Assembly: GCA_050260395.1 (NCBI GenBank)
Contig: JBLNCC010000124.1
Coordinates: 5,997 to 69,996 of the forward strand
DNA: 64,000 nucleotides
Source of the DNA: Betaproteobacteria bacterium
Lineage (GTDB): Bacteria; Bacillota; SHA-98; UBA4971
Direction: 5' to 3'
Under the pieces are notes generated by a model that worked only from the letters and a program-made list of their open reading frames with translations, did not search any database and had not been told where the DNA came from. Below are positions 743 to 55,238 of this stretch, piece after piece; the stretch's first letter is position 1, and every line of letters starts with the position of its first letter. Position numbers and translations under genes: made by a program.

Positions 743-818
<76 letters not shown>

Positions 819-826
819 TAAGAAAA

Positions 827-904: not shown

Positions 905-938
905 GCAAACATCTATGTGCAATTGTCGTTTTTGCTCT

Positions 939-2475: not shown

Positions 2476-3267
2476 TCAACAAGTGTTTCCATCAGTTCCC
2501 ATTCGCACCGCGTCCACAAGCGCAGGAAGAGCCTGCCCCGCCTTGGCGTGTATGACCACGTCCGCACGGCCATCGTAGCCTGTAGGCATCAGGTTTATTA
2601 TCGCAAGATGGGGCGCCATCGCTGGGAGATAGCACACCGGCGCCACTTCAAGACTGGACCCCACGGCGATGAGAAGGTCGCACTCTGCCACCGCCTGCTG
2701 AGCCAGGAGGAAATCAACAGGCAGGGGATCTTCGAAGAGCACCACATCCGGCTTGATGAGTCCACGACACGAGCTGCATCTCGGTAGTTTGCCAAGCCTC
2801 ACCGCATCCAAGATGACCTCGATATCGTAAGCTTTGCCGCATTGTACGCACGTGCCAGTCCGCAAGTGACCGTGGACTTCGAGCACGTTCCTCGATCCCG
2901 CACGTTGATGGAGCCCGTCGATGTTCTGCGTGACCACGACGTCAACAACTCCCATTTCCTCGAGCGCGGCGATGGCTCTGTGCCCGTCGTTCGGTCGCGC
3001 GGCTTGCAGTGTTTCGATGAGCTGCACGATGAATTGGTAGAAGGATTCCGGCATCGTGCGAAAAGCAGTGGCCGAGAGCACCGCCATCGGATCGACCCGG
3101 CTCCATAGACCCGTGCCGGGGCTACGAAAGTCAGGGATACCGCTCTCCGTGGATATGCCAGCCCCGGTGAGAACGACACACTTCTCGGCGCGCCTCACCA
3201 TTCTGGCAAGCTCCGTAACTCCCCTGGAGATCGAAGATGGCTCTTCCGGAGCATCGCTTCGGGACAT
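2476..3267 (-). CDS. NAD-dependent protein deacylase, Sir2/CobB family
   Basis: GAGISTESGIPDFRS and the Zn-ribbon CxxC...CxxC (CVQCGKAY...CSSC). Start chosen at internal Met MSRSD; ORF is open back to 3315. Confidence 0.75.
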   Translation of the reverse strand: MSRSDAPEEPSSISRGVTELARMVRRAEKCVVLTGAGISTESGIPDFRSPGTGLWSRVDPMAVLSATAFRTMPESFYQFIVQLIETLQAARPNDGHRAIAALEEMGVVDVVVTQNIDGLHQRAGSRNVLEVHGHLRTGTCVQCGKAYDIEVILDAVRLGKLPRCSSCRGLIKPDVVLFEDPLPVDFLLAQQAVAECDLLIAVGSSLEVAPVCYLPAMAPHLAIINLMPTGYDGRADVVIHAKAGQALPALVDAVRMGTDGNTC

Positions 3268-3460
3268 TCTCTTTCCCCTCCACCCGTCCAAAGTTCGCGA
3301 GCGCCTGCCGTGCATTCAGCCTGCATTCCCCAGGCGAACAAGTCAGGAAGGCCCCGGGCGGCTCCCCCCTTTTTCGCCGGGCGAGCCGCCGGGGAACGAA
3401 CTCTCGCCCGGCAGGATCTACCATCGGCTAGACAAGCACATATGCGGCGCCGCGCCACAC

Positions 3461-4411
3461 CTAGTCAAGGTCAAGCCCGCGCAGTTCGGGCGCAAGCTTC
3501 CTCCGGGCGTAATGAAACAAGAACTGTTGCGCATAGCCCGCGAGTTCGCCGAACCTTTCCCGGGCAAACTGCGCTATGGTCGCCGCCGACACCTTGCTCC
3601 CGCCGAAATAGACGTAGCGCATCACCCTTGTCATCCACACATCAATCGGAAACGCCTGGTAGAATCCAAGCGAAAACAACAGGACACAGTCGGCGACCTT
3701 CTCGCCCACACCCCGCAGGCCCATCAGCTTCTCCTTTGCGCCCTCGTACCCAAGGGTGCGGAGAGCTTGGAAATCGATGCCACCGGACGCCACTCTCTCC
3801 GCTGCAGCCTTCACGTACTGTGACCTGAACCCCGCGCCGCACCTCACAAGATCGAGGACGTCCGCCGACGCGAGCCTGCCCGGCGTCGGAAAGCTGTAAT
3901 AGGGTGTCTGCGCGGGTCCGCTGCCATCGTCCGTCTGAACGCTGTCGTCGCTTTCCTGGAAGATGGGATCTCCATAGGCTCTCGCTATCCGCTCCACCGC
4001 ACGACGGATGAGGGGAATGGCGTTCCTGGCAGAAAGGATGAATGACACCAGGCATTCCCATGGTTCCTGCCGGAGCAGACGGAGCCCGCTGAACGACCTC
4101 ACCGCGGAGTCGAGCGTGGGGTCTGTGTTGCACAGCCGCTCCTCGATGCTCGCCTGGTCCACATCGAGCGAGAAGTAATCGATCGCAAGCCGAATCACCT
4201 CTTCGCAACCGGGCCTGACGAGTACGAGCGAATCACCCTCCTGCACCGCCCGAATGACCCTCCCGCGCACGACACCGGTGAACAGGCCGTCCGCGACGTC
4301 CCACCGGAAGGCTTGTCCAGATTCCAGGGTCTCCTTGAGGTTGAACGGTGATATGCCTGAGATGACCACGTCATCCCGGCGCGTCTCTATCTTCGGCACC
4401 ACCAAGCTCAT
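3461..4411 (-). CDS. 8-oxoguanine DNA glycosylase/AP lyase (OGG1-like, HhH-GPD superfamily)
   Basis: N-terminal OGG domain plus helix-hairpin-helix LMGLRGVGEKVADCVLLFSLG...FPIDVWM with the catalytic Asp region. Confidence 0.6.
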   Translation of the reverse strand: MSLVVPKIETRRDDVVISGISPFNLKETLESGQAFRWDVADGLFTGVVRGRVIRAVQEGDSLVLVRPGCEEVIRLAIDYFSLDVDQASIEERLCNTDPTLDSAVRSFSGLRLLRQEPWECLVSFILSARNAIPLIRRAVERIARAYGDPIFQESDDSVQTDDGSGPAQTPYYSFPTPGRLASADVLDLVRCGAGFRSQYVKAAAERVASGGIDFQALRTLGYEGAKEKLMGLRGVGEKVADCVLLFSLGFYQAFPIDVWMTRVMRYVYFGGSKVSAATIAQFARERFGELAGYAQQFLFHYARRKLAPELRGLDLD

Positions 4412-7161
4412 TTCGCCCCTCTTTCGAGTTCTCGTAGCAAAGTGCCCAGCTCCTCGAGGGACTCGCCGAATCCGGCGAAGTCCCCCTCCCGCAGCCGTTT
4501 GTTCGCGTCCTCGTACGCCCGAACCGCACGACCAACAAGCTCAGATAGGGCTCTGGTGGCGCTCTCCTGCGAGGACGTCTGCGGCAGCACCTGTACACCC
4601 TTCTCTGGCTCCGTGGCCGCCCCGTCGCTCGCAGCCGCGGCACCGAACGCAGCGGCCAGAGCGCCTTCCAGGGTGACGTCCATGGCCACGGCGTCGCCGA
4701 ACGAGACTATCACCCTCTTCAACTCCGGAAGATCGCTCCGCTCCGCAAGAAGATACAGCGGCTCCACGTAAAGGATTGAGTTCTCTATCGGGATGACCAG
4801 GAGGTTTCCCCGCACGACCTTCGACCCCCGCTGACTCCACAAGGTGAGCGCCTGCGATACGGCGGGATCCTGATCGATCCTCGCCTCGACCTGCATAGGC
4901 CCGTATACAAGGCGATCTTTCGGGAAAGTGTACAGCATAAGCTGCCCGTAGCGAGGGAAATCGTTTCTGGCGGCAAGCCAGGCGATCATGTTGTCTTTGC
5001 CTGATGGAGTGAACGGCACGGTGAGCAGATACTCGGGCCGCTCGTCGCCTGGCATGCGCATGAACACATAGTAGGGCTGCACGGTTTGGCGCTCGCCGCC
5101 GTATACCTCCACCGGGAATTCCCAGAAATCCTCCTGTTTGTAGAAGGCATCCGGGTCTGTCGTATGATACGTGCCGAGCACGCGAGCCTGAATCGCGAAC
5201 AGATCCTCGGGATAACGTACGTGAGCTTTCAGCGACGCAGGCATTTCGTCCATCGGCGCGAACATCCCCGGGAAGACACCAGCTAAGCTCCTTATGATGG
5301 GTTCGTCCGGGTCAGGGGTGTAAAACGTCACATCGCCGCTGTATCCATCAACAACGACCTTGACCGAGTTCCGGATGTAGTTGATTCCCTCCTCGACAGG
5401 TTGAGAATAGGGATAAAGATCGCTCACCACATACGCGTCCCACATCCAGAAGAGTCTCCCGTCCGCAAGCACCAGATACGGGTCTTTGTCGTACCTGAGA
5501 AAGGGTGCTATGGTCTTTACACGGTCGCGGATGTTCCGAATATATAACACCCGGCTGTCCTTGCTCATATCCGTGGACATCAGGAATTGCATGCTCCCAA
5601 ATCGCGCGGCGAACAAGAGCCTTCTCCAGAACGACGACAACCGGACGCCGCCGCGCCCTTCGTAAGTCGTGTAAGTACCGGATTCCCCTGCGGGGTAATC
5701 GAATTCCCGAGCGGACGTGCCGACCACTACGTACTCGTCAGTGCACTCTCCGTAGTAAATCTCGGGACGCACCACGTCAAATCCCTCGTCGCTCCGCAGT
5801 GGAATGTCCCTTATCGTGAAGCTTGGAAGCCCTTCAGCAGAAACCCGGGTCACGTCGCTCATGACCAGCCCATAGCCATGAGTATACACCAAGTGTTCAT
5901 TCACCCATGTCCTCCCCTGCTCCGGCAGTTCCGCAAGGGACAGCTCGCGCGCGCACAGCGCCATTTGCCGTGTCCGGCCGTCCACGGTGTACCTGTCGAT
6001 GTCAACATCATTGAAGTTATAGTATACCCTGATCTCCTGCAGCTGGTTCAGAGTCTGAGAAAGGGGACGCCAGTCCCAGAGCCTCATGTTCTTGATGGTA
6101 TCCCGGTGAGCGGTCACGAGCCTCTCTAGCGTTAGGTCGTTGCGGACGTCGATGGGTCGCACCTCGATGTCGTTCAAGCCGAACGCCTGCCTGGTCGCCC
6201 CGATGTTATAGCCTATGTAGGGCCGCTCTCTCGATAGTTCGTTGGGCTCCACCGAAAGCTCCTGGATAATGGCAGGGTATATCGTCCCTAAAACGAAGGA
6301 GCCAACGACAAGCATCCCGGCGGCCGCAAGAACGAGCTTCTCTCCACGGATGAAGAGGCTCGCAAGCAGCGAAGCCGCCGCAACGACCGCTGTCACAGAC
6401 AGAACCTTGAGGGCAGGCAGCGTTGCATGCACGTCCGTGTAACCCGCCCCGAACGCGACGCCCCGACTGGAGTACACGAGCGCCAACCCGGCAAGCCGAT
6501 AGCCCCAGGCCTTCAGCAAAAGGCAGAGCGTTGCCAGGCCAGCGACGTGGTGCCTGGCCCTCAGGGTCCCGGTCACGTGGGTGCCCCTCAGGCCAATGGA
6601 CCGTGTCACAATGTAGATCGCCGTCACGAGCGCCGTAGTGACGAGCGCAAGGGTCATGAGGAAAGAGTACGCGAGTCGATAAAACGGCAGGCTGAACATG
6701 TAGAAGCCGACATCCAAGCCAAACAAAGGGTCCCTCGCCCCTCCCGGCGCGCGGTGCAAGAACTGCTGAACAACCATCCAATACGAGGAGCCTTCCAAGC
6801 CAGCAAAAGCCGCCAGGAGCAGGCTCACAGCGAAGACAACAAGCCTTGCCTTTTCCGCTGTAAGCCGCACCGGGACATTGTACGAAAGCAGTGAAACCCT
6901 TTCGAAGCTCTTGGCCGCTACCCTGAGGTTAGCATAAGAAAAGACGAAGAAAGCCGCGGCAGCAACAAAGCCGACCATCACCCGTGACAATATCGGTACC
7001 CATAGCGCTTGCGGGTACCCCAATTCCCGGAACCACATAATATCTGTGACAAACGTAGCGATCCCCCGAAACGACGCAACGAAGGCCGCAACCACCACAA
7101 CTACTACGAACCAGAAACACCGCCGGATCACCGCATTCCCCCCGTCCACGCCCTGGGGCAA
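4408..7161 (-). CDS. UPF0182-family large membrane protein (COG1615), function unknown
   Basis: 917 aa. About seven N-terminal TM helices are followed by a large soluble domain, the architecture of UPF0182 proteins of Firmicutes/Actinobacteria. Confidence 0.5.
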   Translation of the reverse strand: MPQGVDGGNAVIRRCFWFVVVVVVAAFVASFRGIATFVTDIMWFRELGYPQALWVPILSRVMVGFVAAAAFFVFSYANLRVAAKSFERVSLLSYNVPVRLTAEKARLVVFAVSLLLAAFAGLEGSSYWMVVQQFLHRAPGGARDPLFGLDVGFYMFSLPFYRLAYSFLMTLALVTTALVTAIYIVTRSIGLRGTHVTGTLRARHHVAGLATLCLLLKAWGYRLAGLALVYSSRGVAFGAGYTDVHATLPALKVLSVTAVVAAASLLASLFIRGEKLVLAAAGMLVVGSFVLGTIYPAIIQELSVEPNELSRERPYIGYNIGATRQAFGLNDIEVRPIDVRNDLTLERLVTAHRDTIKNMRLWDWRPLSQTLNQLQEIRVYYNFNDVDIDRYTVDGRTRQMALCARELSLAELPEQGRTWVNEHLVYTHGYGLVMSDVTRVSAEGLPSFTIRDIPLRSDEGFDVVRPEIYYGECTDEYVVVGTSAREFDYPAGESGTYTTYEGRGGVRLSSFWRRLLFAARFGSMQFLMSTDMSKDSRVLYIRNIRDRVKTIAPFLRYDKDPYLVLADGRLFWMWDAYVVSDLYPYSQPVEEGINYIRNSVKVVVDGYSGDVTFYTPDPDEPIIRSLAGVFPGMFAPMDEMPASLKAHVRYPEDLFAIQARVLGTYHTTDPDAFYKQEDFWEFPVEVYGGERQTVQPYYVFMRMPGDERPEYLLTVPFTPSGKDNMIAWLAARNDFPRYGQLMLYTFPKDRLVYGPMQVEARIDQDPAVSQALTLWSQRGSKVVRGNLLVIPIENSILYVEPLYLLAERSDLPELKRVIVSFGDAVAMDVTLEGALAAAFGAAAASDGAATEPEKGVQVLPQTSSQESATRALSELVGRAVRAYEDANKRLREGDFAGFGESLEELGTLLRELERGAK

Positions 7162-7264
7162 CCGGCTCTTGTACTGATCGCGATGAAATCGCGCCGGTCT
7201 CGCACGTGGACTCGACCCTGATAACGGATGCTGCGCCCCAGAAACAACAGGCCTGCGGCACGCG

Positions 7265-7534
7265 TCATGAGCCGTCGCGCGTGTCGGCTTTTTTATCCTT
7301 CGTCAACCGGCACACGATTCCTGCCACAGGCGCGCCTGCGGTTCCCCTTCCAACCCATCTTTCGGCTGCACAAGATGGTAGAAAGCGCCGGGCCACGTCG
7401 AGGAACCCAAGGGCATGGCGTAGCATGACCGCCTTTACCTCAGGGTCGTCCGCCCATCTGGCCTCCTCAGTGCATATATGTCCCAGCATGAGGCATGCAT
7501 CAGCGAGTCTCGTTTCCATGGACCAAAGCTCCAT
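7265..7534 (-). CDS. hypothetical small protein (89 aa), strong SD
   Basis: AGGGGGG lies 6 nt upstream of the ATG. Non-repetitive, helical-looking sequence MELWSMETRLADACLMLGHICTEEARW.... No recognisable family. Sits between the CPBP protease and UPF0182 genes. Confidence 0.35.
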   Translation of the reverse strand: MELWSMETRLADACLMLGHICTEEARWADDPEVKAVMLRHALGFLDVARRFLPSCAAERWVGRGTAGAPVAGIVCRLTKDKKADTRDGS

Positions 7535-7585
7535 GAACAGCCCCCCTGACTTGGCCGCGGCGGCCGGGGCCCCCTCAGTGCCGCG

Positions 7586-8368
7586 TCACGCCTCACCGCG
7601 CCCCGGGATCACCGCCGCCCGCTCCCAGCGTCGCTCCGCTTTGCTCCACATCAGGCCCGCGTAGTTCAGCCACCAGTGGACGAGCCACCCAGGCCATAGC
7701 GAACCCGCCATCCCGTTCAAGATGCAGAAACCGGCGCCCAGACTCGACGGAACCACCAAGGCATACCACAAGAGGAAGGCGCTCTTGCCGCGGGTGGCCA
7801 TCCTCATCGGAATGAAGTGCAAGAGGCCGAACGCCAGGGATGACGACGCAACCGCAGCCGCTGCCGCCCACTCGGCAGGGACACCAAGACTCCTCAGCAT
7901 CGCGGCCGCTCCGGACAGCGCAAGCCCTCGGAACGCAAACTCCTCCGCAAAAGTCTGCGAGAACGTCATAGCCGCTCCCACCAGTGCAGCGCGCACAAAG
8001 CCACTATGGACGAGGGCCAGGTACGCGCCGCCAGGGTTGATCGCGCCACTGTCCACGAGGGCCCTCATGATCGGCCGGAAGAGGTATGCCTGTACCAGCC
8101 GACTCATCACGAAGGCTGTCGCCCACAGAGCACACATGTGCCACCAAGGGCATCCCGCGAGCTCCCTAACACAAAGGCCGGTTGCAAGCAGCGGGTCCCT
8201 GCCGTACACCGCCCAACCGATGATAAGTAGCGCTGTTCCCAAAAGAGGTATGCCGTCGATGGTCCCGTCCGCCCCGACATCCGCGCTTTCCTTCGACGAC
8301 CTGTTGACGTCCGCAAGCATCCTGGTGACGAAACTGAGAGCGAGGGACAAATACACGATCCCCGTCAT
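7586..8368 (-). CDS. CPBP-family (CAAX/Abi) intramembrane metalloprotease
   Basis: Multi-TM protein with the EExxxR motif (AEEFAFRGL) and FxxxH motif (FGLLHF). Confidence 0.7.
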   Translation of the reverse strand: MTGIVYLSLALSFVTRMLADVNRSSKESADVGADGTIDGIPLLGTALLIIGWAVYGRDPLLATGLCVRELAGCPWWHMCALWATAFVMSRLVQAYLFRPIMRALVDSGAINPGGAYLALVHSGFVRAALVGAAMTFSQTFAEEFAFRGLALSGAAAMLRSLGVPAEWAAAAAVASSSLAFGLLHFIPMRMATRGKSAFLLWYALVVPSSLGAGFCILNGMAGSLWPGWLVHWWLNYAGLMWSKAERRWERAAVIPGRGEA

Positions 8369-8374
8369 ACTCTC

Positions 8375-9703
8375 TCACAACCCACCTGCAAGAGCGGCTG
8401 CAACCGCCCTAGCATTCTCGACGATGGTCCGGTCGTCGCGCCAACCCGACAACAATGCCAAGTAGGCCGTCTTGTAGAACTCGCAATACGGATCGATGGC
8501 GAGGAGGCTGCCCCCCTGCGCGAGTGCATGGGCTCGGCACCCACCGCCGCAGAAGTATGCCACCTTGCATTGGGAACAACCGGGGATTTCGTTCACCTCG
8601 GGTACAACGCTCTTCCCCGCGCGGCGTATTTTCGAAAGCGAGCTACCAGGCAACCTTCCAAGGAGCATTTCGGGACGGTGCATCAAGGGACACGGATACA
8701 CTGCGCCATCCGGACCGACGCTGAGGACGCTGTACCCGGCACCGCAGCCGACTTTCACGCGTAAGTCCACTGCCGGGCCAGGGTCTCGGCCCTTTGACCA
8801 TCCCTTCGAGTCCTGACAGGTCCGCTTCACAAGCGAGGCAAAGCAGGCAAGGAGCTCCCTCGGCGCGATCGAGAGATCTGCCGCATGACACGCGCCTCGT
8901 CCCACTGGCACGAAAAGACTGAAATGGTAGCCAACGCCGAGCTCCCTGGCAAGCTTTATAATGCCTTGAACCCGCGCGAGGTTCCTCCGAGTCAGAGTGG
9001 GCACGATCTCAATCCCGCCGACGCCCGCGGACCGCAGCGCACGAATGCCCCGCATCGCGGACCCGAAGCTACCGCGACCTCGTGCCAGTTCGTGGGTAGC
9101 GGGATCGTCTGATTCGATGCTCACTTGCACCCTGGCCCCGCACTCCTTTACCAGCCTTGCTTCTTTTTCACCTATAAGGCATCCGTTGGTAAGGAGCACA
9201 ACGTCGTCGAATCTTCGTGTGGCAAACGCCAGTATGTCGCCTATATCGTCACGGAGAAACGGCTCTCCACCGCTTACGACGAGACACCGTGGTTTGCCGG
9301 TTGCAAGCACGTCTAGCACAGACAGCGCTTCATCGGTCGAGAGATCGCCGGCGCCAGGTCCATCCCCAGCCGCGAAGTAACATGCCGGGCAAGAGAGGTT
9401 GCACCTATCAGTAACGTTGAAGTACACTCGACCGAGGCTCGCCGCTTCCCCGGCCTCTACTATGAAGCCCGCGTCTAGGAGATAACGGAGGAGCCCTTCC
9501 ACCTCTTCGGAGTCAGCTCCCCGCAGGGCGCATTCCAGCGCCACAAGCTTAGTCGCCGGGAGGTTCCCAGAGTTTTCCGCGAGCTCATATGCCTCACGAG
9601 TCAACTTGATCCACTCGAGGTTTTTGGGATTCACCAGCACATACTGGCCTTCAAACTCAGACACTGGCACTTCGGGGCAGATTGTGTAGACCTTCTCATC
9701 CAC
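8375..9703 (-). CDS. radical SAM / SPASM-domain peptide-modifying enzyme with N-terminal RRE(PqqD)-like domain
   Basis: CNLSCPACYF (CxxxCxxC) about 110 aa from the N-terminus. C-terminal Cys-rich SPASM (CPLMH...CSQCKVAYFCGGGC). N-terminal QYVLVNPKNLEWIKLTREAYEL resembles a RiPP recognition element. Confidence 0.75.
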   Translation of the reverse strand: MDEKVYTICPEVPVSEFEGQYVLVNPKNLEWIKLTREAYELAENSGNLPATKLVALECALRGADSEEVEGLLRYLLDAGFIVEAGEAASLGRVYFNVTDRCNLSCPACYFAAGDGPGAGDLSTDEALSVLDVLATGKPRCLVVSGGEPFLRDDIGDILAFATRRFDDVVLLTNGCLIGEKEARLVKECGARVQVSIESDDPATHELARGRGSFGSAMRGIRALRSAGVGGIEIVPTLTRRNLARVQGIIKLARELGVGYHFSLFVPVGRGACHAADLSIAPRELLACFASLVKRTCQDSKGWSKGRDPGPAVDLRVKVGCGAGYSVLSVGPDGAVYPCPLMHRPEMLLGRLPGSSLSKIRRAGKSVVPEVNEIPGCSQCKVAYFCGGGCRAHALAQGGSLLAIDPYCEFYKTAYLALLSGWRDDRTIVENARAVAAALAGGL

Positions 9704-9740
9704 CAGTACCGAGGCCCCCCTTCGTCATCCGTCGACCGAT

Positions 9741-9822
9741 GTGAGGGTGCGTTAGCCATTGCCGCATTTCCAGCGGTTGCCGGGTTGCCGGTGTTGCACA
9801 CGGGGACGGCGCCCCAGGCGGC
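9741..9822 (-). promoter_or_regulatory. conserved 82-nt leader element, copy A (89% identical to 45696..45777), 38 nt upstream of the radical SAM gene start
   Basis: Alignment with copy B shows 9 mismatches in 82. Contains tandem TTGCCGG(G)TTGCCGGTGTTGCAC repeats and a GGGGCGCCGUCCCC hairpin. An upstream stem shows compensatory changes between copies. Confidence 0.6.
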
Positions 9823-10212
9823 GCCCGCTCCGCCTCGTTCTTGGGTTCAGGCCAGGAAAGCCTCGCCGTCGTCGACACAAACAACGGGGGCAGGCGGCGA
9901 GGCAGCAACCCGTTGTCTCGTCGCCCGCCCATGCGCCCCGCGGCCGGGCTTACCCTATCGTAACCCGATGACCCCAGAGTCTGAAAGTGAAGCAATACCC
10001 GTCGATCGCAAGGTCCATCCTGATCTTTCTGCCACCAAGCCTTCCGTACACCAAGTCCACCCCCTTTCCCCGCCTCGCGCTGCGGGAGAATTGGATGCGC
10101 TCGCCTGAGCCGGCCCAGGTCGCCTCTGACGATCTCAGTCTACCAACCCTGCGCCCGGCGCGCCATTGCCCGAACGGGGGACTTGTGGTGGCTCCAACGG
10201 ATGAACCTTGGT

Positions 10213-10710
10213 TCAACGCACGCCGCGGCTCCACACATACCTCACCGCCTGGGATCGGTTTTTTACCCTGAGCTTCTTGAATATGCTCGCCACGTGCGTT
10301 TTCACGGTGTTAACGCTGATGTACAGCTCCTGCGCGATGTCTTTGTTCCTCAAACCCTTGGCGAGGAGCCTCAGGACATCCAGCTCGGTCCTCGTGAGGT
10401 ACACCGCCGCGTCTCGTTCAAAAGGAGCCGCCTCCTCTTGACCAGCCCATGCACCGCCACCGGCTCCCCCGCTTGACGCAGAGGAGTCCTTCGGCGAAAC
10501 AGCCGGCGACTCGCGGAGCACCGCTCGGAGGCCGAGGATGTCGCCCGGGATGTCCGCGCCCGCAGCAACAACTGCCGGCGCTAAAGCCGAACAAGACGTA
10601 ATTCTCAAGGTGCCGATGACCTCCACGTCACCAATGGACACGGCAGAGTCTGGATCGACGAAACAGTCTGTCGTTCCATCGTCGAGTACGAGCACTTTCA
10701 ACCTGCTCAT
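10213..10710 (-). CDS. LuxR/GerE-family HTH transcriptional regulator (atypical N-terminal receiver-like domain)
   Basis: C-terminal LTRTELDVLRLLAKGLRNKDIAQELYISVNTVKTHVASIFKKL is a LuxR-type HTH. Confidence 0.7.
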   Translation of the reverse strand: MSRLKVLVLDDGTTDCFVDPDSAVSIGDVEVIGTLRITSCSALAPAVVAAGADIPGDILGLRAVLRESPAVSPKDSSASSGGAGGGAWAGQEEAAPFERDAAVYLTRTELDVLRLLAKGLRNKDIAQELYISVNTVKTHVASIFKKLRVKNRSQAVRYVWSRGVR

Positions 10711-11140
10711 TGCCCTCCCCCCAACGGAGTTGTGCCAGAGGGACCGACCGGAAAACCGACAGCAGTCTTAGCGAACGCCTAGCTCCCCCTTTCGCCGGCC
10801 GTTTCCGCTCCACACTCCACACTTATGTGACCATGCAGTAGCCAGGTGCCACCATATCTGGTCTATACTGCCATGTCTCAATGATAGCACCATATTTTGG
10901 AAGCGTCAAGGGCTACGGTCGCGCACACCTGCGGCGAGGTCCCCCTCACGGCTTCATCTTCATCGAGCCGCTGTTGTTGAGGCAAGGGTTGACCTCGAGG
11001 TGAGCCTCAATTCCCGAACCCAATCGTTGCTGACGTCGCAAGAATGTCCCCTGCCCGAGGCGCATACTCGCTCGAATAGGAAGGAAAGCCACCTGCCCGG
11101 AGCGAAACTCCCCGCAGGACGAATGGAGGGGTGACAAGAC

Positions 11141-13189
11141 ATGCCTGATATCGCGCTCATCGCACCGTACGATAACCTCGCGGCAGTAGCCTATGAAGTC
11201 TCGAGAAGCGTCCGAAAGCCCGTCAGAGTAGAGCGCGCTCTCCTGGGCGAGGCGCCGGCGCTCGCGCGGCGCCTCAAGAAGGAGGGGATTCAGGTCCTTA
11301 TCAGTCGCGGAGGAACGGCCCTCGTCCTGCAGGACGCCCACGACCTGGGTCTGCCGGTAGTGGAGATCCGCGTGACCGCTTACGACGTGGTGCGCGCCGT
11401 TGCGAAAGCAAAGCTTTTCGGGCGCCGCATAGCCATAGTGGGCTTTGAGAACATGGTGCTCGGCGCGAGCACGCTGAGCGAGTCAATGGACGTGGACATA
11501 AAGGAGGTCGTCCTCGAGCGCGCCCGGGATGCCGACACGATAGTCCTTGAAGCCCTCCAGGACGGGGTTGACGTCCTGATAGGTGGCGTGATAACTGTCC
11601 GAACCGCGGAGAAGCACGGTGCCAGAGCCGTGCTGATAGAATCGGGGCCCGAAGCTGTTAGGCAAGCTATCGACGAGGCTTCGCGCGTGCTGTGGGTTAA
11701 GAAACACGAGACGGCGCGGGCGGAACAGTTCAAGCTCATTATAGACAACGTGTCCGACGGCATCATTGCCGTGGACGATGCCGGGCACATCACTGTCTTC
11801 AACGAAGCAGTCCAGCGACTCACCGGCCGCGCCGCCGCCGACGTCATAGGACGACATGTAAACGAGGTGTTGCCTGAAGCCGGTTTCGCCGGAGTCCTCG
11901 CGGCCGCCTCGTCGGGCCGGGGCTGGCGCCGCGAGCCCTCGTCGAATCCTTCGTCGCAGCCTGCACTACCCGAGGTATGCCGGATAAACGGCACTCTCGT
12001 CAATGTGACCCGCGTGCCTATCGTGGTAAGCGGCTCGTGCGCCGGTGCCATCGGCACTTTCCAGGATATCAGCAGGTTGCAAGCGCTGGAAAAGGATCTG
12101 CGTAAGAGGCTCTACGCCCGCGGTCACGTGGCGCGGTTTACGTTCGGCGACATCGTAGGCACGAGCCACGCGATCCAGGCTGCCATCACCAAAGCCAAAC
12201 GCTTCGCGGGCGTGGACTCCACCGTCCTCATCCTCGGGGAGACAGGAACCGGGAAAGAGCTTTTCGCCCAAAGCATCCACAATGCGAGCGCCAGGCGTGA
12301 CGGGCCGTTCGTGGCCGTTAACTGCGCCGCGCTGCCGGAGAGCCTGCTCGAAAGCGAGCTATTTGGATACGTCGAAGGCGCCTTCACCGGGGCCAAGCGG
12401 GAAGGCAAACAAGGCCTCTTTGAGCTGGCCCATCACGGAACGATCTTCCTGGATGAAATCGCGGGCATGCCTCTGCGTCTCCAGGCGCGCCTTCTCAGGG
12501 TCCTCCAAGAAAGAGAGGTGATGCGGCTCGGGGATGACCGCACGATCCCGGTTGACGTCCGCGTCATCGCCGCCTCCAACAAAGACCTCCATAGACTCGT
12601 CGCGGAGGGCCTCTTTCAGGCGGACTTATACTACCGGCTTGACGTCCTCAAGCTCGCGCTGCCACCGTTGCGAGAACGGCCGGAGGATATACCGCTCCTG
12701 GCGGACACGTTTGCGAGGACACTATCGGCTAAGCTCGGCACGCCCTTCCACGGCTTCACCGGCGACGCACTGGCGGTCCTTTCCGCTCATCCCTGGCACG
12801 GCAACGTGAGAGAACTCAAGAACACCGTTGAGAAGTGCCTGGTCCTGTCGGAAAACGGGCTTGTCACGGATAACGACGTGCTCGATGCCATAGGAGACAT
12901 GCCCGGGCCGTGTGCGTGGCCACGCATTACCGCGAGCGACGGTAACACCCCCTCAACCGGCGGCGTTCTGCCCGGTCCCCACAACGATGGCGCGGAGCAA
13001 GACCTCGAGAGCCTGGTTAAGGCAGCGGAACGCGACAGCATAGCCCGTGCGCTCAGTGCATGCGGCGGGAACAAGAGCGAAGCCGCCCGTCGCCTCGGAA
13101 TCAACCGGACCACGCTTTGGCGCAAGCTCAAGAGCGGACACGCGCCAGCGCGGCGAGACGCACGGCGGGAAAGCAGCCGCGAACCATGA
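11141..13189 (+). CDS. sigma-54-dependent transcriptional activator (PrpR-like N-terminal domain, PAS, AAA+ sigma54-interaction domain, Fis-type HTH)
   Basis: GETGTGKELFA (Walker A) and GAFTGA (EGAFTGAKREGKQGLFE). C-terminal HTH SEAARRLGINRTTLWRKLK. Confidence 0.85.
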   Translation: MPDIALIAPYDNLAAVAYEVSRSVRKPVRVERALLGEAPALARRLKKEGIQVLISRGGTALVLQDAHDLGLPVVEIRVTAYDVVRAVAKAKLFGRRIAIVGFENMVLGASTLSESMDVDIKEVVLERARDADTIVLEALQDGVDVLIGGVITVRTAEKHGARAVLIESGPEAVRQAIDEASRVLWVKKHETARAEQFKLIIDNVSDGIIAVDDAGHITVFNEAVQRLTGRAAADVIGRHVNEVLPEAGFAGVLAAASSGRGWRREPSSNPSSQPALPEVCRINGTLVNVTRVPIVVSGSCAGAIGTFQDISRLQALEKDLRKRLYARGHVARFTFGDIVGTSHAIQAAITKAKRFAGVDSTVLILGETGTGKELFAQSIHNASARRDGPFVAVNCAALPESLLESELFGYVEGAFTGAKREGKQGLFELAHHGTIFLDEIAGMPLRLQARLLRVLQEREVMRLGDDRTIPVDVRVIAASNKDLHRLVAEGLFQADLYYRLDVLKLALPPLRERPEDIPLLADTFARTLSAKLGTPFHGFTGDALAVLSAHPWHGNVRELKNTVEKCLVLSENGLVTDNDVLDAIGDMPGPCAWPRITASDGNTPSTGGVLPGPHNDGAEQDLESLVKAAERDSIARALSACGGNKSEAARRLGINRTTLWRKLKSGHAPARRDARRESSREP

Positions 13190-25026: not shown

Positions 25027-26991
25027 TCATCGCGCACCTCCTCCCGCCGGTTTGACCGAAGCGCCCGTCGTGCCGGTTCCCCCGGCGGCCGGCGTACCCT
25101 CCGCGTGAGAGCCACCCGCACTTCGATCTGAGCTGTTGAGTTGAGCGGCGAGACGCACCGGGTCATGCAGGAGCTCTTTCGCCCGGCCCCCGCCCGACTC
25201 GCCCAGAAACCGCGCGTAAAGCTCGACGACACCCGGGTTTCGACGCGGGTATCGCTCCGCGATGGCTTGGTCGATAGCCCGCAGCGCCGCGCCCCGCAGC
25301 CGCTCGGGCCCGCCCTCCGCGCCCTCCTGGTTCATCGCGATCGGCTGACCGCCTCCACCTACGCAGCCGCCGGGGCAAGCCATCACTTCGACGAAGTCGT
25401 ATCGCCGCTTTCCCGCCGCCACGTCGTTCAATATCTGCCTTGCTGCCGCAAGCCCTTGGACCACAGCCACGCGCAAGGCAAGGTGGCCGAGGGTCACCGT
25501 CGCTTCAGCCACGCCTGGACCGGGAGGCCCGCTGACAACGCGTCCGTCCCCGTCCGCCTCAAGCCTCACCCCAAGCTCGTCCGCGAGCGCCCGGAGCGCC
25601 GCGTCCATGACCCCGCCCGTAGTGCCGAATATGGCCCCTGCGCCGCTTGCGCTCCCGAGGGGGTCATCGAATCCGCTCTCCTCTAGCGACTCCACGTCCA
25701 TCTCGACCGACTGAATCAGCCGAATGAGCTCGCGCGTGGTGAGGACCGCGTCGACATCGCGCAGTGCGCCCCGCATCCCCCCGGCCCCGTGGTCTGTGCC
25801 GTCGTCCGAGGCTCCAGGCGCTTCCGGGCCTAGCCCTCCTTTCCTCGCGGCCTCGAACTTCTTCGCTGTGCACGGCATCACGGACACGACGTACACGTCC
25901 TCCGGGGCCACGCCCTCGGCCTCGTGGATCACCATCTTTGCGACGGCTCCAGCCATCATGTGAGGCGACTTACATGTTGAAAGGTGCTCAGTGAGGTCGG
26001 GATACTCGGTCTCCACAAACCTCACCCACGCGGGACAACACGAAGTGAACATGGGTAACTTTCCGCCTGTTGCCAGGCGTTGCCTTAGCTCGTGCGCTTC
26101 CTCGACCGCCGTGAGGTCCGCCCCGAACGCCGTGTCGAACACCCTGTCGAACCCGAGCTTTCGCAGGGTGGCTACCATGAGCGTCGTGGAGACCGTCCCC
26201 GGCGGCTTGCCCCATGCCTCTGCGAGGGTAGCCCGGAGCGCGGGTGCCGTCTGAGCTACCATGAGGGTCCCGCGGTCCGCGAGCTGGCGCCTCACCTTAA
26301 CCAGTTCCGACCTCTCCGAGAGTGCTCCAGTGGGGCACGCGACCACGCACTGCCCGCACTCCACGCACCGCGTCGCCGCCGCTCTGTCCTCGAAGGCGAG
26401 CGAACGGCACCGCGCCCACTCCTCGCCCAGGACCCCGCGCGGCCCGGTCCGCTCGATGATGCCGCGGGCCTCCTCGACCTCGGCGGCCAACGACTCATGA
26501 GGAACGATGCCGTGCATCTTCATGCACGCCGCGACGCACCTTCCACACATGATGCACTTGTTCGGATCGCGGACTATCGCTTGGCCCGTCCTGTCCACCG
26601 TAAGCTTCTGCCGCCTCACAGGGAGCCTGCGAACACGCACGCCGAGCTCGTCGCCAAGCGCCTTCAGCTCGCAGTATGCCCTCCGCTCACACACGAGGCA
26701 CTCTCCGGGATGCTGGGCCAAGAGGAACGTCACTACCTCGCGGCGCCTTGCCACCACCCTGTCCGTCGCGGTACGAATGACCATGCCCGGCTCCACAGCA
26801 TGGTCGCATGCGGTCACCAAATCGTCCCTGCCCTCCACCTCGACCACGCACACTCCACACCCCGCGCCGCGCTCGATCCATGGATGGTGGCACAGCGTCG
26901 GCACCCGCGCTCCGGCGCGCCTCGCGGCCTCCAGGATGGTCGTCCCCTCGGGCACACAGCACGCCCGACGGTCCACCAAGACCTCCAGCAC
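25027..26991 (-). CDS. hydA: [FeFe]-hydrogenase catalytic subunit (HydA, monomeric CpI-like M3 architecture: 2Fe-2S, accessory 4Fe-4S clusters, H-cluster domain)
   Basis: H-cluster motifs L1 TSCCPAWV, L2 MPCTAKKFE, L3 EVMACPGGCVGGGGQP. Start set at GTG preceded by GGAGGTGAGG; ORF is open back to 27144. Confidence 0.8.
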   Translation of the reverse strand: MLEVLVDRRACCVPEGTTILEAARRAGARVPTLCHHPWIERGAGCGVCVVEVEGRDDLVTACDHAVEPGMVIRTATDRVVARRREVVTFLLAQHPGECLVCERRAYCELKALGDELGVRVRRLPVRRQKLTVDRTGQAIVRDPNKCIMCGRCVAACMKMHGIVPHESLAAEVEEARGIIERTGPRGVLGEEWARCRSLAFEDRAAATRCVECGQCVVACPTGALSERSELVKVRRQLADRGTLMVAQTAPALRATLAEAWGKPPGTVSTTLMVATLRKLGFDRVFDTAFGADLTAVEEAHELRQRLATGGKLPMFTSCCPAWVRFVETEYPDLTEHLSTCKSPHMMAGAVAKMVIHEAEGVAPEDVYVVSVMPCTAKKFEAARKGGLGPEAPGASDDGTDHGAGGMRGALRDVDAVLTTRELIRLIQSVEMDVESLEESGFDDPLGSASGAGAIFGTTGGVMDAALRALADELGVRLEADGDGRVVSGPPGPGVAEATVTLGHLALRVAVVQGLAAARQILNDVAAGKRRYDFVEVMACPGGCVGGGGQPIAMNQEGAEGGPERLRGAALRAIDQAIAERYPRRNPGVVELYARFLGESGGGRAKELLHDPVRLAAQLNSSDRSAGGSHAEGTPAAGGTGTTGASVKPAGGGAR

Positions 26992-27278
26992 GCCCCTCAC
27001 CTCCAATCGCCCATTCTCTCGTGATCGATCCCTTTCGTCCCCGTTCCGCCACCCGCTCACCGTTCTCGCCGGAGACCCGCGCTCGGCCGGCGCCCGGCGC
27101 CCACCGGTCCCCGCGTGGCAGTGAGGCTCGAAAACACGCTCCATATTCTAGGGAAAACACACGCCCCACTGACCTAACGTGCGCTCCGCGCAACCCCGAA
27201 AGCCTGCGTCCACTCGCTCAGAAGGCCGCCCCAACCGGCCCCGGGGCGCCGAGATCGAGCGAACGATCCCCGGACGCC

Positions 27279-40569: not shown

Positions 40570-40607
40570 CGCCTGAACCTCACCTCCGAGTTCCGTCGGG
40601 ATCCCGC

Positions 40608-44623: not shown

Positions 44624-45616
44624 TCATGGCCGCCCGCCCATGCAAAGCGTAAGGAGCGCCTTCTGCACGTGCAGCCTGTTCTCGGCCTCGTCGAAGACCA
44701 CCGAGTGCGGCCCGTCCATCACCTCGTCGGTGACCTCGTAGCCACGGTCGGCCGGCAAGCAGTGCATGTAGATGGAGTCCGGGGCCGTGAGCTTCATGCG
44801 CCTCTCATCGCATATCCAGTCTGTGTACTTCTTTGCGATTGCCATTGACTCATCCTTGTCCTGGGTGGTCATGAGCGCTCCCCAGCTCTTCGGGTAGACT
44901 ACGTGCGCCCCCTCGAAGGCCGCGTCCATGTCGTGGACCACTTCGAATTTCACTCCTGCCTGCCGGGCGTTTTCCTCGGCCTGCTTCATGATCTCCGGCA
45001 TCAGCCTGAACTCGGGCGGGTGAGCAAGAGTCACATCCATCCCGAACCGGGTCATGAGAAGGATGAGCGATTGCGGGACCGACATGGGCTTCATGTAGCT
45101 CGGAGCGTAAGCCCACGAGACCACGAATTTGCGCCCCCGAAGCTCGCCCGCGAACTTCTCCCTTATCGTCATGAGATCACCGAGCGCCTGGCACGGATGG
45201 TACAGGTCGCACTGCATGTTGAAGACGGGAACGCTCGACCACTTGGCGACCTCGCGTATGTACTTGTTGCCTATTCCAAAGAAGCAGTTTCGAATGGCGA
45301 TGCCGTGGCCATACCTGCTGAGGACCATCGCCGTGTCCTCCGCAGCCTCTCCGTGGCTTATCTGCAGCTTGTCGGGGGTGAGATCGTGAGCATGCCCGCC
45401 GAGCTGCGTCATGCCGGCCTCGAAGGAGTTCCGGGTCCTCGTGGACTGCTCGAAGAACATCATGAAAAGGGTCTTGTCTTGCAGGTAACGATGGGGAACC
45501 CCCATGGCGAAGAGCTTCTTGAGGTCCCAGGCGACGTCCAGGACCATCTCCAGCTCTTCCCTCGTCCACTCCTGCGTGGTGATAAAGTGTTTGCCGCGCA
45601 ATAGAGAATGCACCAT
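44624..45616 (-). CDS. carbamoyltransferase of the OTC/ATC superfamily (YgeW-like; candidate oxamate/ornithine-type catabolic transcarbamylase)
   Basis: STRTR carbamoyl-phosphate motif, HPCQ, HCLP. Confidence 0.7.
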   Translation of the reverse strand: MVHSLLRGKHFITTQEWTREELEMVLDVAWDLKKLFAMGVPHRYLQDKTLFMMFFEQSTRTRNSFEAGMTQLGGHAHDLTPDKLQISHGEAAEDTAMVLSRYGHGIAIRNCFFGIGNKYIREVAKWSSVPVFNMQCDLYHPCQALGDLMTIREKFAGELRGRKFVVSWAYAPSYMKPMSVPQSLILLMTRFGMDVTLAHPPEFRLMPEIMKQAEENARQAGVKFEVVHDMDAAFEGAHVVYPKSWGALMTTQDKDESMAIAKKYTDWICDERRMKLTAPDSIYMHCLPADRGYEVTDEVMDGPHSVVFDEAENRLHVQKALLTLCMGGRP

Positions 45617-53128: not shown

Positions 53129-54538
53129 TCACGAAGCGGCATCCCCAGCATCCCGCAGCAAAGCCTGCACGGCCAGCGCGCACTCGATGCGCTTCTTCTG
53201 GATCGCGCACGCCACGGGTTCAGGGGTGAGGATATCGCCCGACGAAAAGTAGGCATTTGCGTGGCACCCGCCGCTGCAGATGAACCGCGCCCAGCACTCG
53301 GCGCAGCCGCGCTTCGTGTAGACGTGTGCGCCCCGGAACCTCTCCACGAGCACTTCATCCATTTCGCCCTCGAACACGTCGCCCATGAGGAGCTCGCGTT
53401 GCCCCACGAACTGATGGCATGGGTACACGCTCCCGTCGGGCGCCACAGCGAGATAGTCCACGCCCGAGCCGCAACCCGCGAGGCGTCGCGCAAGGCACGG
53501 GCCGCCCTCAAGATCCACGTTGAAATGGTAAAACGAGAACCCCTTTCCCTCGGCGTGTCGCTCAAGAAAGAGCGTGGCCAGGCGCTCGTATTCCCGGCCG
53601 ATGGCGTCGAGGTCGCCCGCGCGGATGCCGTAAGACGCATCCCGCCCCCCGACCACGGGCTCCACGGATATGCTCCCGCAACCGAGGTCCGCGAGGTGCA
53701 TGACGTCGGACGCGAAGTCTAGGTTCGCCCTGGTGTAGGTGCCACGGACGAAGTACGACTCGGGCGCGCGGCTTCTCACGAACCGTTGCACCTTGGGCGC
53801 GACCACATCGTAGCTCCCGCCACCTCCCGGCGCAACTCGCATCCTGTCGTGCGTCTCTTTGCGCCCGTCGAGGCTGAGCACTACGAGCATGTCATTATCG
53901 GTGAGGAACCGGGCCACGTCCTCATCGAGCAGAACCGCGTTGGTGGTCAAGGTGAAATCAATGTGCTTCCCGAGGCGCTCTGCCCTCGCCCGCCCATACT
54001 CGACGGTGGACTTCACCACACCGAAGTTGAGGAGCGGCTCGCCGCCGAAGAAATCCACGTTGAGGTTGCGGCGCTTGCCCGACCGCGCGAGGAGGAAATC
54101 TATCGCCGCCCGAGCCACCCGCTCAGGCATAAGCTCCCTCGTCATGCCGAAGTTTCCGGTCTTGCCGAAGCAGTATCGGCATCTGAGGTTACAGTCATGC
54201 GCCACGTGGAGGCAAAGGGCCTTGACGAGCACCTCGCCCGAGGGCTCGTACGGCTCGTCTGGGGCGAAAGGAGGAGAGAGCCTTCCAGATGAGACCATCT
54301 CGTCGATCTCGTCGTAAGCTTCGGCGACTGCCTCCTCACCGTGAACCGGCCCCAAGCTGCGGACGACCTCGTCTCTCGACCCAGGGCCCCCGTACGCAGC
54401 GGCCACATCGCAGGCCACGCTGTCGAGCTCGTGGAGGCCGCCTGTCTTCACATCGAGCAGAAGGTTCACCCCAAGCACCGAGAACACGTGCCAGTTGGCT
54501 TCCTTGCGGGCTTCGCGCGAGCCTCCTGCGCCGGGCAT
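53129..54538 (-). CDS. SCIFF (six-cysteines-in-forty-five) radical SAM/SPASM thioether-forming maturase (CteB-like ranthipeptide synthase)
   Basis: CNLRCRYCFG radical SAM motif, C-terminal SPASM CAECWARFICSGGCHANA, N-terminal WHVFSVLGVNLLLDVKTGGLHELD peptide-binding segment. A cognate SCIFF peptide gene lies 150 nt upstream. Start moved to the internal Met; ORF is open back to 54766. Confidence 0.8.
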   Translation of the reverse strand: MPGAGGSREARKEANWHVFSVLGVNLLLDVKTGGLHELDSVACDVAAAYGGPGSRDEVVRSLGPVHGEEAVAEAYDEIDEMVSSGRLSPPFAPDEPYEPSGEVLVKALCLHVAHDCNLRCRYCFGKTGNFGMTRELMPERVARAAIDFLLARSGKRRNLNVDFFGGEPLLNFGVVKSTVEYGRARAERLGKHIDFTLTTNAVLLDEDVARFLTDNDMLVVLSLDGRKETHDRMRVAPGGGGSYDVVAPKVQRFVRSRAPESYFVRGTYTRANLDFASDVMHLADLGCGSISVEPVVGGRDASYGIRAGDLDAIGREYERLATLFLERHAEGKGFSFYHFNVDLEGGPCLARRLAGCGSGVDYLAVAPDGSVYPCHQFVGQRELLMGDVFEGEMDEVLVERFRGAHVYTKRGCAECWARFICSGGCHANAYFSSGDILTPEPVACAIQKKRIECALAVQALLRDAGDAAS

Positions 54539-54687
54539 CCCGGGCCAAGCCCCATCGACATCCCCGTTCCCACGGACCCTGGAGCTTTCGGCCTGCCGGG
54601 CGGCCTCCAATCGCCGCGTCGCGTCTGCGCCCTGCGCCCCCGCGCTGCCCGGCCGGGCGGCGGGCTCTCGCTCGGGCCTTCGGAGGC

Positions 54688-54858
54688 TCACTTCTCGCGC
54701 TGCCGGCATACCTGATTGCCGACGGTGCACGAAGTCTTGCACGCCGACTGGCACGAGGCCTGGCATTCCTTGCAGCCGCCCACGCCGAGGCCGGCCTTCG
54801 TCGAGCCCTCGCTTACCGTGCGAATGTGCTTCGTCGCGATCTTCCGCGCCACAACCAC
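54688..54858 (-). CDS. SCIFF ranthipeptide precursor (six Cys in the C-terminal ~25 aa)
   Basis: Translation ...HIRTVSEGSTKAGLGVGGCKECQASCQSACKTSCTVGNQVCRQREK* has the invariant SCIFF core GGCxECQxSCQSACKTSCTVGNQ. GTG start sits 5 nt after AAAGGAG. Below the 60-aa ORF-track cutoff. Confidence 0.8.
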   Translation of the reverse strand: MVVARKIATKHIRTVSEGSTKAGLGVGGCKECQASCQSACKTSCTVGNQVCRQREK

Positions 54859-55238
54859 CACGTCTCCTTTATGTAAATCTCTTGCGTCAGCACCCAGGTC
54901 TCGCCGGGCCCGGATACCTGTGGCAGACCCGGGGCGTTCCAGGGAACATTATAGCATCAGCTTCCTCCACTGCGAAAGCCACCAGCCAGAATTTCCGCCG
55001 GAATCACCCAAACAGGCGTTGCCTGCTTCGTGTCCCGAGGCTATAATTATCCCGAAGTCGTTGCAGCGGGAGGTTCCCGGCCGCGTTTGCGGTCACCGGC
55101 ATGGGCTCCGCCCCGTCCCTCGAGCCGTGCGCCGATGCGGGGCGCGGCGATGCTTGTTGCCCGTGGCACGCCGTTGCCCGCAAGACCACGTTACAGGAGC
55201 AGTCGCAGGCCAGGCGACCTCCAGGGAGGAAAGCGTTC

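Follow-up and report, generated by a model that had tools for sequence, protein, structure and literature searches.

In the stretch of DNA analysed here (the window: 64,000 nt, positions 5,997 to 69,996 of contig JBLNCC010000124.1, GenBank assembly GCA_050260395.1), positions 7265-10710 carry a group of genes, all on the minus strand, that surround a radical S-adenosylmethionine (radical-SAM)/SPASM enzyme. The four open reading frames (ORFs) that an earlier note on this DNA had described, encoding a LuxR-type regulator, the radical-SAM enzyme, a CPBP-family intramembrane protease and an 89-aa hypothetical protein, are all found in the ORF list at the coordinates given in Table 1. The earlier note had taken the group for a cluster that makes a peptide synthesized by ribosomes and modified post-translationally (RiPP) and in which no precursor was annotated, and this reading is supported by a conserved small ORF next to an enzyme that resembles peptide maturases.

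The precursor gene and the conserved cassette

The spacer between the radical-SAM and LuxR genes is 509 nt long, not 510 nt as previously given, and it does contain the 94-aa ORF (9950..10234) that had been noted in it, the conservation of which is limited to its final 33 codons. Contigs of relatives were obtained by protein identity of the enzyme (seven contigs) or by a scan of one genome per species, and a hidden Markov model (HMM) built from eight peptides was run on all stop-to-stop fragments of 91 sequences. Matches with E-values between 1e-23 and 2e-10 were obtained directly upstream of the radical-SAM gene at 29 distinct loci, and nothing significant was found elsewhere in the 91 sequences. 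The 33-codon ORF is a real conserved precursor-type gene co-located with the enzyme, and the tentative choice of the last 33-34 codons of the longer ORF as the precursor holds, these being the sole conserved element of the spacer.

The peptide is always 33 codons long, always ends in T-[IV]-G-stop, and is co-conserved with enzymes down to about 30% identity. The entropy summed over the codons of the small ORF amounts to 22.9, 16.5 and 43.2 at codon positions 1, 2 and 3, respectively, and since the variation concentrates at third positions, the ORF evolves as a translated gene. In an alignment of 26 peptides the residues M1, G7, C20, F23, W26, G27, T31 and G33 are invariant. Cys20 is the only cysteine, and the residue that follows Trp26-Gly27 is H, Y, Q or V, never K. 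Two subtypes can be distinguished, MYG[KR]LGG..DLAIDG[FY]CFTFRLWGHR[IV]TIG and [MV]F.V.AGR.RRMNVSVN.FC.NF.LWGY.ITIG, which pair with enzymes that are mutually only about 30% identical. A leader of approximately residues 1-18 and a core of approximately residues 19-33 are proposed. In nearly all of the 29 loci a Shine-Dalgarno (SD) sequence of the GGAGGTG or GGGGGTG type stands upstream of the start codon, the locus L024 having only an approximate GAGGAGGG (related loci bear L numbers throughout). In the window the GTG start occupies 10051-10049 and the SD 10067-10058, and because the resulting gap of 6 nt is normal, the doubt previously raised about their spacing is unfounded.

The precursor gene is unannotated in the window and, as judged by exact sequence look-up, is rarely called elsewhere and never named; in L007 and L010 the gene callers marked small spacer ORFs whose translations are near-identical to the tail of the 94-aa ORF. 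Four variants of the peptide matched no Pfam or NCBIfam family, SCIFF included, and gave one chance hit only, while a search of 1.84 billion representative proteins returned a single 33-aa peptide cluster as a relative. Literature searches for peptide sequence strings found no match, and those for a radical-SAM enzyme with CPBP/CAAX and LuxR partners found nothing relevant. By these comparisons the precursor family appears to be undescribed in the libraries searched and to resemble no described precursor family.

The representative search also matched an RCC1-type repeat protein of 664 aa, in six stretches of which the strand-turn-strand unit TIDxDLDGYADTLYMWGxN resembles the peptide core AIDGYCFTFRLWGH. 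The match resembles a beta-hairpin-like stretch and was regarded as not homologous; the likeness probably reflects a common beta-hairpin propensity.

In all cassette loci the LuxR gene is the immediate upstream neighbour of the peptide. In most of them (L007-L009, L016-L024) the order is LuxR, peptide, radical-SAM enzyme, CPBP protease, ABC ATPase, ABC permease, a homologue of the 89-aa protein and UPF0182, and the ABC pair suggests that the product is exported in these many relatives. The pair is missing in the window and in its closest relatives (L001, L003, L005, L011-L013). In a second genomic context, represented by L010, L032 and L038, the succession LuxR-peptide-radical-SAM-CPBP is placed between xanthine-dehydrogenase or amidohydrolase genes on one side and obg-nadD on the other; L030 and L031, judged by position, have the same ORF layout. 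Since the obg-context cassettes of L010, L032 and L038 carry these four genes without the ABC pair, the 89-aa ORF or UPF0182, the conserved core consists of the LuxR, peptide, radical-SAM and CPBP genes, the order of which is kept in two genomic contexts.

The naming of a LuxR regulator and a CPBP protease in the earlier note agrees with the Pfam matches of both proteins (Table 1). The regulator of the window has a C-terminal helix-turn-helix and only a remnant of a receiver domain (the stub MSRLKVLVLDD...EVIG), from which the segment with the phospho-acceptor Asp is deleted; its orthologue in L009 aligns as a complete response regulator with a full Response_reg domain. The CPBP protein scores 36.8 bits with the Pfam Rce1-like model, above the gathering score of 22.4. 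Its three catalytic motifs are intact, EExxxR as EEFAFR at 142, FxxxH as FGLLH at 180 and HxxxN as HWWLN at 231, and the residues E142-E143-R147, F180-H184 and H231-N235 are invariant in eight orthologues. The gene starts 6 nt past the stop codon of the radical-SAM gene and follows the latter in both genomic contexts, and its product is a candidate leader peptidase and/or immunity protein.

A distant radical-SAM/SPASM relative (36% identity) was also seen in L036, from Collinsella sp., a gut actinobacterium, at 2627-7071, with a CPBP-motif membrane protein a few genes off. Given this locus, the pairing of the two proteins may reach beyond the present peptide family.

Of the non-coding sequence upstream of the peptide, a dyad box is the best-conserved block in 19 aligned loci, and its arms co-vary between clades (CCCG..CGGG versus CATTCC..GGGAATG). 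About 17 bases downstream of it follows a -10-like element, perfect as TGGTATAAT in L009 and L023, and downstream of this element a conserved leader. The -10-like element was not picked up by a strict consensus promoter scan, in which the only sigma-70-like match near the cassette lies upstream of LuxR (10909..10881). The dyad and the -10-like element may together form an activator-dependent promoter with a LuxR operator. Past the precursor stop, long GC stems of differing sequence occupy the position of the window's hairpin in most loci, and in five of the eight loci tested (L001, L007, L008, L009 and L038) their stability reaches z-scores of -2.7 to -4.3. No intrinsic terminator with a canonical T-tract was found in 7100-11200 by a consensus scan; the spacer matched no Rfam family at E <= 1, and around the locus no family reached its gathering level.

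Table 1. Positions of the cassette genes, neighbouring genes and non-coding features (window coordinates unless a locus is named).
Feature	Position	Strand	Basis or remarks
Precursor peptide gene, 33 codons + stop, GTG start	9950..10051	-	encodes MYGRLGGRKIRMDLAIDGYCFTFRLWGHRVTIG; conserved in 29 loci
Shine-Dalgarno of precursor gene, AAAGGGGGTG	10058..10067	-	6 nt ahead of GTG start
Radical-SAM/SPASM peptide maturase, 442 aa	8375..9703	-	Pfam Radical_SAM 7e-22; NCBIfam; invariant Cys; AlphaFold2 model; Foldseek
Predicted RRE-like winged helix of the enzyme	~aa 1-85 (9449-9703)	-	
Radical-SAM barrel of the enzyme	aa 93-~300	-	
SPASM domain of the enzyme	aa 320-442	-	
CPBP (Rce1-like/Abi) intramembrane protease, 260 aa	7586..8368	-	Pfam Rce1-like 5e-9
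LuxR/GerE-family regulator, 165 aa	10213..10710	-	Pfam GerE 4.7e-21
Conserved dyad box, AAGTCCCCCGTTCGGGCAATGG	10163..10184	-	candidate LuxR operator; centred ~31 nt upstream of -10 element
Extended -10-like element, TGGTAGACT, no good -35	10137..10145	-	candidate precursor promoter; column block TAGAC/TATAA
GC-rich hairpin, 19 nt past precursor stop	9888..9930	-	candidate attenuator or transcript-stabilising structure
89-aa conserved hypothetical protein	7265..7534	-	family-less; cassette membership doubtful
UPF0182 protein, 917 aa	4408..7161	-	Pfam/NCBIfam scans
Sigma-54 activator, PrpR_N type, flanks LuxR side	11141..13189	divergent	Pfam
Repeat, copy A	9741-9834	-	
Repeat, second copy	~45690-45850	-	
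Repeat, third copy	42110-42183	+	
Repeat, other loci	L011 8680-8800; L091-L170		

The radical-SAM/SPASM enzyme

The enzyme was compared with 22 full-length homologues, which are 35-80% identical to the window protein. Its CX3CX2C motif (C101/C105/C108) is invariant in all of them, as is a 7-Cys SPASM motif made up of C320, C338, C376-x2-C379-x5-C385-x3-C389 and C407, and C272 is nearly invariant. The C-terminal SPASM domain that had been proposed earlier is thus upheld by the invariant motif, the Pfam match being weak in the window protein and obtained in 19 of the 22 homologues. The N-terminus had been described as approximately 110 residues of PqqD/RRE-like sequence (RRE, RiPP recognition element); an RRE-like fold is predicted there, with a length of about 85 residues. 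In an AlphaFold2 model computed on the homologue alignment (pLDDT 86, pTM 0.85), strands lie within residues 5-35 and three helices come after them (36-43, 50-61 and 65-77), the block-mean pLDDT over residues 1-80 being 83-95, and the domain is predicted to be a PqqD-like winged helix.

When the model was compared with the PDB by Foldseek, CteB came first (4.9e-18; 427-473 columns aligned, the N-terminal domain included), followed by TigE, the anaerobic sulfatase maturase anSME, SkfB, SuiB, PqqE and ChlB; of these, CteB, TigE, SkfB and SuiB are RiPP maturases that bear an RRE. A profile built from the family's sequences matched SkfB at 4.3e-32, CteB at 2.2e-31, anSME at 5.7e-22, PqqE at 1e-21 and TigE at 1.3e-16, and with the single sequence SkfB was again the best among solved structures (6.9e-14). 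By profile, the closest affinity of the enzyme is accordingly to the peptide maturases SkfB and CteB, with anSME and PqqE behind them. The combination that the earlier note had named as speaking against a RiPP cluster, a grouping with non-RiPP SPASM enzymes together with the lack of any conserved small ORF, was not observed: the grouping is with SkfB and CteB, and the ORF is conserved.

Of the curated NCBIfam models, the best alignment that takes in the N-terminal domain is that of the sactipeptide maturase StsB, in which residues 18-400 align with model positions 21-406 (3.1e-37; 128.5 bits versus a cut-off of 625). NirJ2 scores 129 bits against a cut-off of 500, and its best-matching stretch, like that of AhbD, begins at residue 93-94, outside the N-terminal domain. 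MftC (TIGR03962) reaches 119 bits of 265, WgkB (NF050035) 115.7 of 650 and PqqE 67.6 of 381; the cut-off of 340 for PapB is not reached either.

The earlier note had further stated that a SCIFF system exists elsewhere in the window and that the present enzyme is unlike it, and both points are borne out. A SCIFF-type gene for a six-Cys peptide (...GGCKECQASCQSACKTSCTVGNQVC...) is located at 54688..54861 on the minus strand, with a CteB-like radical-SAM maturase at 53129..54766 on the same strand. This is a separate locus (53129-54861). With the CteB/SCIFF (thermocellin-type) thioether maturases the present enzyme shares the architecture of an RRE, a radical-SAM barrel and a 7-Cys SPASM domain. 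The SCIFF precursor has six Cys in forty-five, whereas the peptide described here has one and matches no SCIFF model, and the CPBP and LuxR partners are specific to the present cassette. The two enzymes of the window are 30% identical over residues 95-405, and the SCIFF maturase model is not among the best 25 of the 61 NCBIfam matches to the enzyme, which is a distant paralogue of the window's SCIFF maturase and not a second SCIFF system.

Alignments show that the first SPASM segment, CGAGYSVLSVGPDGAVYPC, has the CteB pattern C-G-x-G...Y-P-C and lacks the second upstream Cys of anSME. When an auxiliary I (Aux I) cluster has three Cys ligands, its fourth ligand is either another Cys or the substrate (PMC10878394), and since the second upstream Cys is missing, an Aux I site able to take a substrate ligand would fit the enzyme. 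The CX3CX2C motif, the 7-Cys SPASM motif, the predicted RRE fold and a co-conserved precursor, which together mark an RRE-dependent radical-SAM/SPASM maturase, are all found here.

Proposed maturation pathway and its alternatives

The region is quite probably a cassette, complete in itself, that makes a ribosomal peptide modified by a radical-SAM enzyme (RaS-RiPP). In the proposed pathway the regulator would bind the dyad at 10163-10184 and activate a promoter with a weak -35 and an extended -10 element, the peptide would be translated from the strong SD, and the hairpin past the precursor stop might lower read-through into the enzyme genes. The RRE would bind the N-terminal leader (approximately residues 1-18, ...KIRMDLAIDG), in which hydrophobic and polar residues alternate in a strand-like manner, so that the radical-SAM site and two auxiliary clusters could cross-link the invariant C-terminal core, [FY]-C-x-x-F-x-x-W-G-x-x-x-T-[IV]-G, intramolecularly. 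The CPBP protein would then take off the leader and/or protect the producer, and the adjacent ABC pair would export the product in the many relatives that have it. The most likely course of events is leader-guided radical cross-linking, perhaps with formation of a Cys20 thioether, followed by CPBP cleavage. In sactipeptides and ranthipeptides a core Cys is linked as a thioether to a C-alpha, C-beta or C-gamma carbon. As for the bond itself, a sactionine- or ranthionine-type thioether that joins Cys20 to a carbon of some residue downstream is favoured because the core has a single invariant Cys, because SkfB, CteB and StsB are the nearest characterised relatives and because the first SPASM segment follows the CteB pattern; this preference is a tentative one, to which we would give somewhat less than an even chance.

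The closest parallel in layout is the skf cluster of Bacillus subtilis. SKF carries a single thioether formed from one Cys, and SkfC is a CPBP-family protein. The cluster (skfA, skfB, skfC, skfE/F) comprises a short precursor, an RRE-bearing radical-SAM enzyme, a putative protease and an ABC export/resistance pair (PMC8172795), and many relatives of the window (L007-L009, L016-L024) have exactly this order, the window itself being without the ABC pair. SkfB differs in having a twitch domain with a [2Fe-2S] cluster (PMC8172795), whereas the present enzyme has a full 7-Cys SPASM domain. The thioredoxin SkfH and SkfG have no counterpart, no equivalents of them having been found on the seven contigs identified by protein identity, and the regulator here is of the LuxR type. 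For StsB/GggB, the maturases of streptosactin, the likeness lies in the NCBIfam alignment described above; the precursor is unrelated, and the shp/rgg regulation of streptococci differs from the LuxR-type regulator of the cassette.

Several observations weigh against this interpretation. No NCBIfam equivalog cut-off is approached, the top score being that of AhbD with 148 bits against 500. The SPASM match of the window protein in Pfam (0.0016, 19.2 bits) stays below the gathering score of 21.5, and the Pfam PqqD/RRE model is not detected in the window protein and is seen in just one of the 22 homologues (8.6e-5), so that the RRE assignment rests mainly on the predicted fold. C272 could be the fourth Aux I ligand, which would weaken the argument for an open site. 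The promoter and operator were read from conservation alone, and the hairpin of the window has a z-score of -0.24, no more stable than shuffled sequence. The ABC exporter pair is missing in the window's clade, and for this reason export, and even current function, is uncertain there. Finally, the stretch DLAIDGYCF of the peptide resembles DLAVDGICG of mycofactocin precursors (four fetched loci; hhalign probability 64%, P 6.4e-5). To our knowledge, the Cys of the mycofactocin precursor is not the modified residue, and in view of the resemblance of the DLA[IV]DG-x-C stretch Cys20 might be a recognition residue.

The main rival accepts the same cassette and moves the chemistry to Trp26, where a C-C (or C-N or C-O) cross-link of the streptide, tryglysin or cyclophane type would be formed, Cys20 serving for recognition or another purpose. 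The invariant W26-G27, followed by H, Y, Q or V, recalls the WGK motif that is modified by WgkB (PMC9389541). Both systems have an RRE-radical-SAM-SPASM enzyme, the score of the WgkB model is close to that of StsB, and the MftA-like DLA[IV]DG-x-C suggests a Cys within a recognition motif. However, a conserved Lys partner after WG is missing, the WgkB cut-off is far from reached, the nearest solved relatives are thioether synthases, and a single strictly invariant core Cys is the classical donor signature; a Trp26-centred cross-link is held to be rather unlikely. The constant end of the peptide, T-I-G or T-V-G, brings to mind another chemistry, the conversion of Ile32 (Val in some loci) to (methyl)cyclopropylglycine by a synthase of the TvgB/TigE kind. 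The targets of these RRE-radical-SAM-SPASM enzymes are Val or Ile residues within TVGG and TIGSVS motifs (PMC10878394), and the TigE match in Foldseek, the fourth-best structural one, reaches 1.1e-14. Yet the GYW motif, which is reported to be strictly conserved and required in cyclopropyl synthases and the Tyr of which ligates the Aux I cluster (PMC10878394), is found in none of the 22 homologues, the T[IV]G motif is single and not repeated, and the profile match to TigE covers the N-terminal half only. The absence of GYW from all homologues led to the rejection of this identity, and a cyclopropyl synthase is considered very improbable.

A different role for the product, as a mycofactocin-related redox cofactor or an intracellular signal instead of an exported antimicrobial, with the CPBP protein as the trimming peptidase, finds its grounds in the profile-profile match to MftA cited above and in the homology of the radical-SAM-SPASM enzymes, seen in the MftC score. 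The precursors share a DLA[IV]DG-hydrophobic-C stretch, loci with MftC figure among the remoter relatives that were recovered, and neither the window's clade nor the obg-context cassettes have an exporter. On the other hand, the peptide runs 13 residues past the motif and ends in TIG, whereas MftA ends in ...CGVY; the RRE is fused to the enzyme and not separate as in MftB; the MftC cut-off is not reached; no MftD/E/F-type genes were found adjacent to the cassette on the seven contigs identified by protein identity, CPBP and LuxR genes standing there instead; and the ABC pair that follows CPBP in many relatives suggests export, so that a cofactor or internal signal appears distinctly improbable. 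Least credible is that the small ORF is a regulatory upstream or chance ORF and the radical-SAM protein a non-peptide enzyme, either a haem enzyme like AhbD/NirJ or one like sulfatase maturases. AhbD and NirJ2 do provide the top NCBIfam bit scores, and anSME and PqqE are also significant by profile. The scores are nevertheless far below the cut-offs of these families, PqqE included, and the best AhbD and NirJ2 stretches exclude the N-terminal domain; a peptide substrate is favoured by the predicted RRE fold, by the constancy of CPBP as a partner and by the conservation of the whole 33-residue peptide at the amino-acid level across enzymes only 30% identical, and no haem or sulfatase genes were seen adjacent to the cassette on the seven contigs.

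The cassette passed the test of none of the curated families that could be checked, and its precursor is unrelated to described ones; it is best described as a new family within the known radical-SAM-modified peptides. Of the undescribed RiPP class that had been suggested earlier, the part concerning the precursor stands for the libraries searched, while class status is only partly shown. A bolder version, with an undescribed cross-link (such as Cys-Trp, Trp-His/Tyr, or a thioether to the Thr-Ile-Gly end) in a new RaS-RiPP class whose precursor is evolutionarily linked to that of mycofactocin through DLA[IV]DG-x-C, seems doubtful. If the motif link is true, it bears on how radical-SAM peptides diversified and joins redox-cofactor pathways with exported-peptide pathways that use CPBP proteins.

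Peptides modified by radical-SAM enzymes keep yielding new bond-forming chemistry as well as narrow-spectrum antimicrobials or signalling molecules, and the description of new families is usually held back by tiny precursor genes that are not annotated. Here the precursor, its invariant residues, a minimal cassette and the variants from 29 loci are defined, so the chemistry is directly testable by co-expressing two genes. The family occurs in metagenome-assembled genomes (MAGs) labelled Bacillota or Clostridia, many of them from bioreactors or biogas plants, where peptide natural products are almost uncharted. It is an incremental addition to a well-populated class and not a new principle, many orphan families of this kind being in existence.

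The neighbouring ORF, the dispersed repeat and other features of the window

The strong SD that the earlier note had seen in front of the 89-aa ORF is present (AGGGGGG, 6 nt ahead of the ATG), while a place for this ORF in the cassette finds no support, as it is absent from the obg-context cassettes. The ORF is kept in the loci with UPF0182 and stays adjacent to that gene when the ABC genes intervene. It matches no Pfam or NCBIfam family, and because a homologue search found only three database proteins, its tie to UPF0182 is one of synteny. It seems to encode a small, lineage-restricted protein, and it is doubtful that this protein belongs to the cassette.

The earlier note had also placed a copy of a repeated element, copy A, in the spacer. 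The repeat is real, 9741-9834 (-) being 88% identical to 45696-45789, and its core motif occurs three times in the window against 0.14 expected. The element, some 140-170 nt in length, occurs in multiple copies between genes. Its 5′ stem is of either of two types, its GC hairpin shows compensatory changes, its core GTCCCCG-N2-4-GCAACACCGGCAAC is invariant, and many copies end in ...ACTTAG. The core was found in more than 120 metagenome stretches, mostly from bioreactors and biogas, with several copies per long contig. A role as a regulatory part of the cassette was considered and rejected: the element is missing at the copy-A position in L001, L003 and L005, and in L011 it sits in front of UPF0182. 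None of the relatives checked has it at this position, so it does not belong to the system and is an insertion in the spacer of the window. The element has no match in Rfam, and an inspection by eye for a sigma-54 promoter revealed nothing convincing in it; it could be a miniature inverted-repeat transposable element (MITE) or repetitive extragenic palindrome (REP)-like sequence, or a non-coding RNA.

Two copies of the repeat are located in intergenic regions of a gene cluster at 40600-48500 that, by reading of the translated ORFs, resembles purine/N-heterocycle catabolism clusters. Its members include a ygeW-like carbamoyltransferase (44624..45616), an M20 peptidase-like protein, a hydantoinase/amidohydrolase-like protein, an XdhC-like protein and a 2Fe-2S subunit.

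The 100%-identical protein bears the NCBI label 'MAG: Betaproteobacteria bacterium'. All related loci come from Bacillota/Clostridia MAGs, and the window contains SCIFF and UPF0182. The taxonomic label given to the source bin appears to be incorrect.

A purine riboswitch aptamer is present at 27265-27368 (-) (Rfam RF00167, 45.9 bits, above gathering), the ORF 25027..27144 (-) starting about 80 nt downstream of it, and three tandem tRNA genes are found at 746-1014 (-) with Rfam tRNA scores of 65-76 bits.

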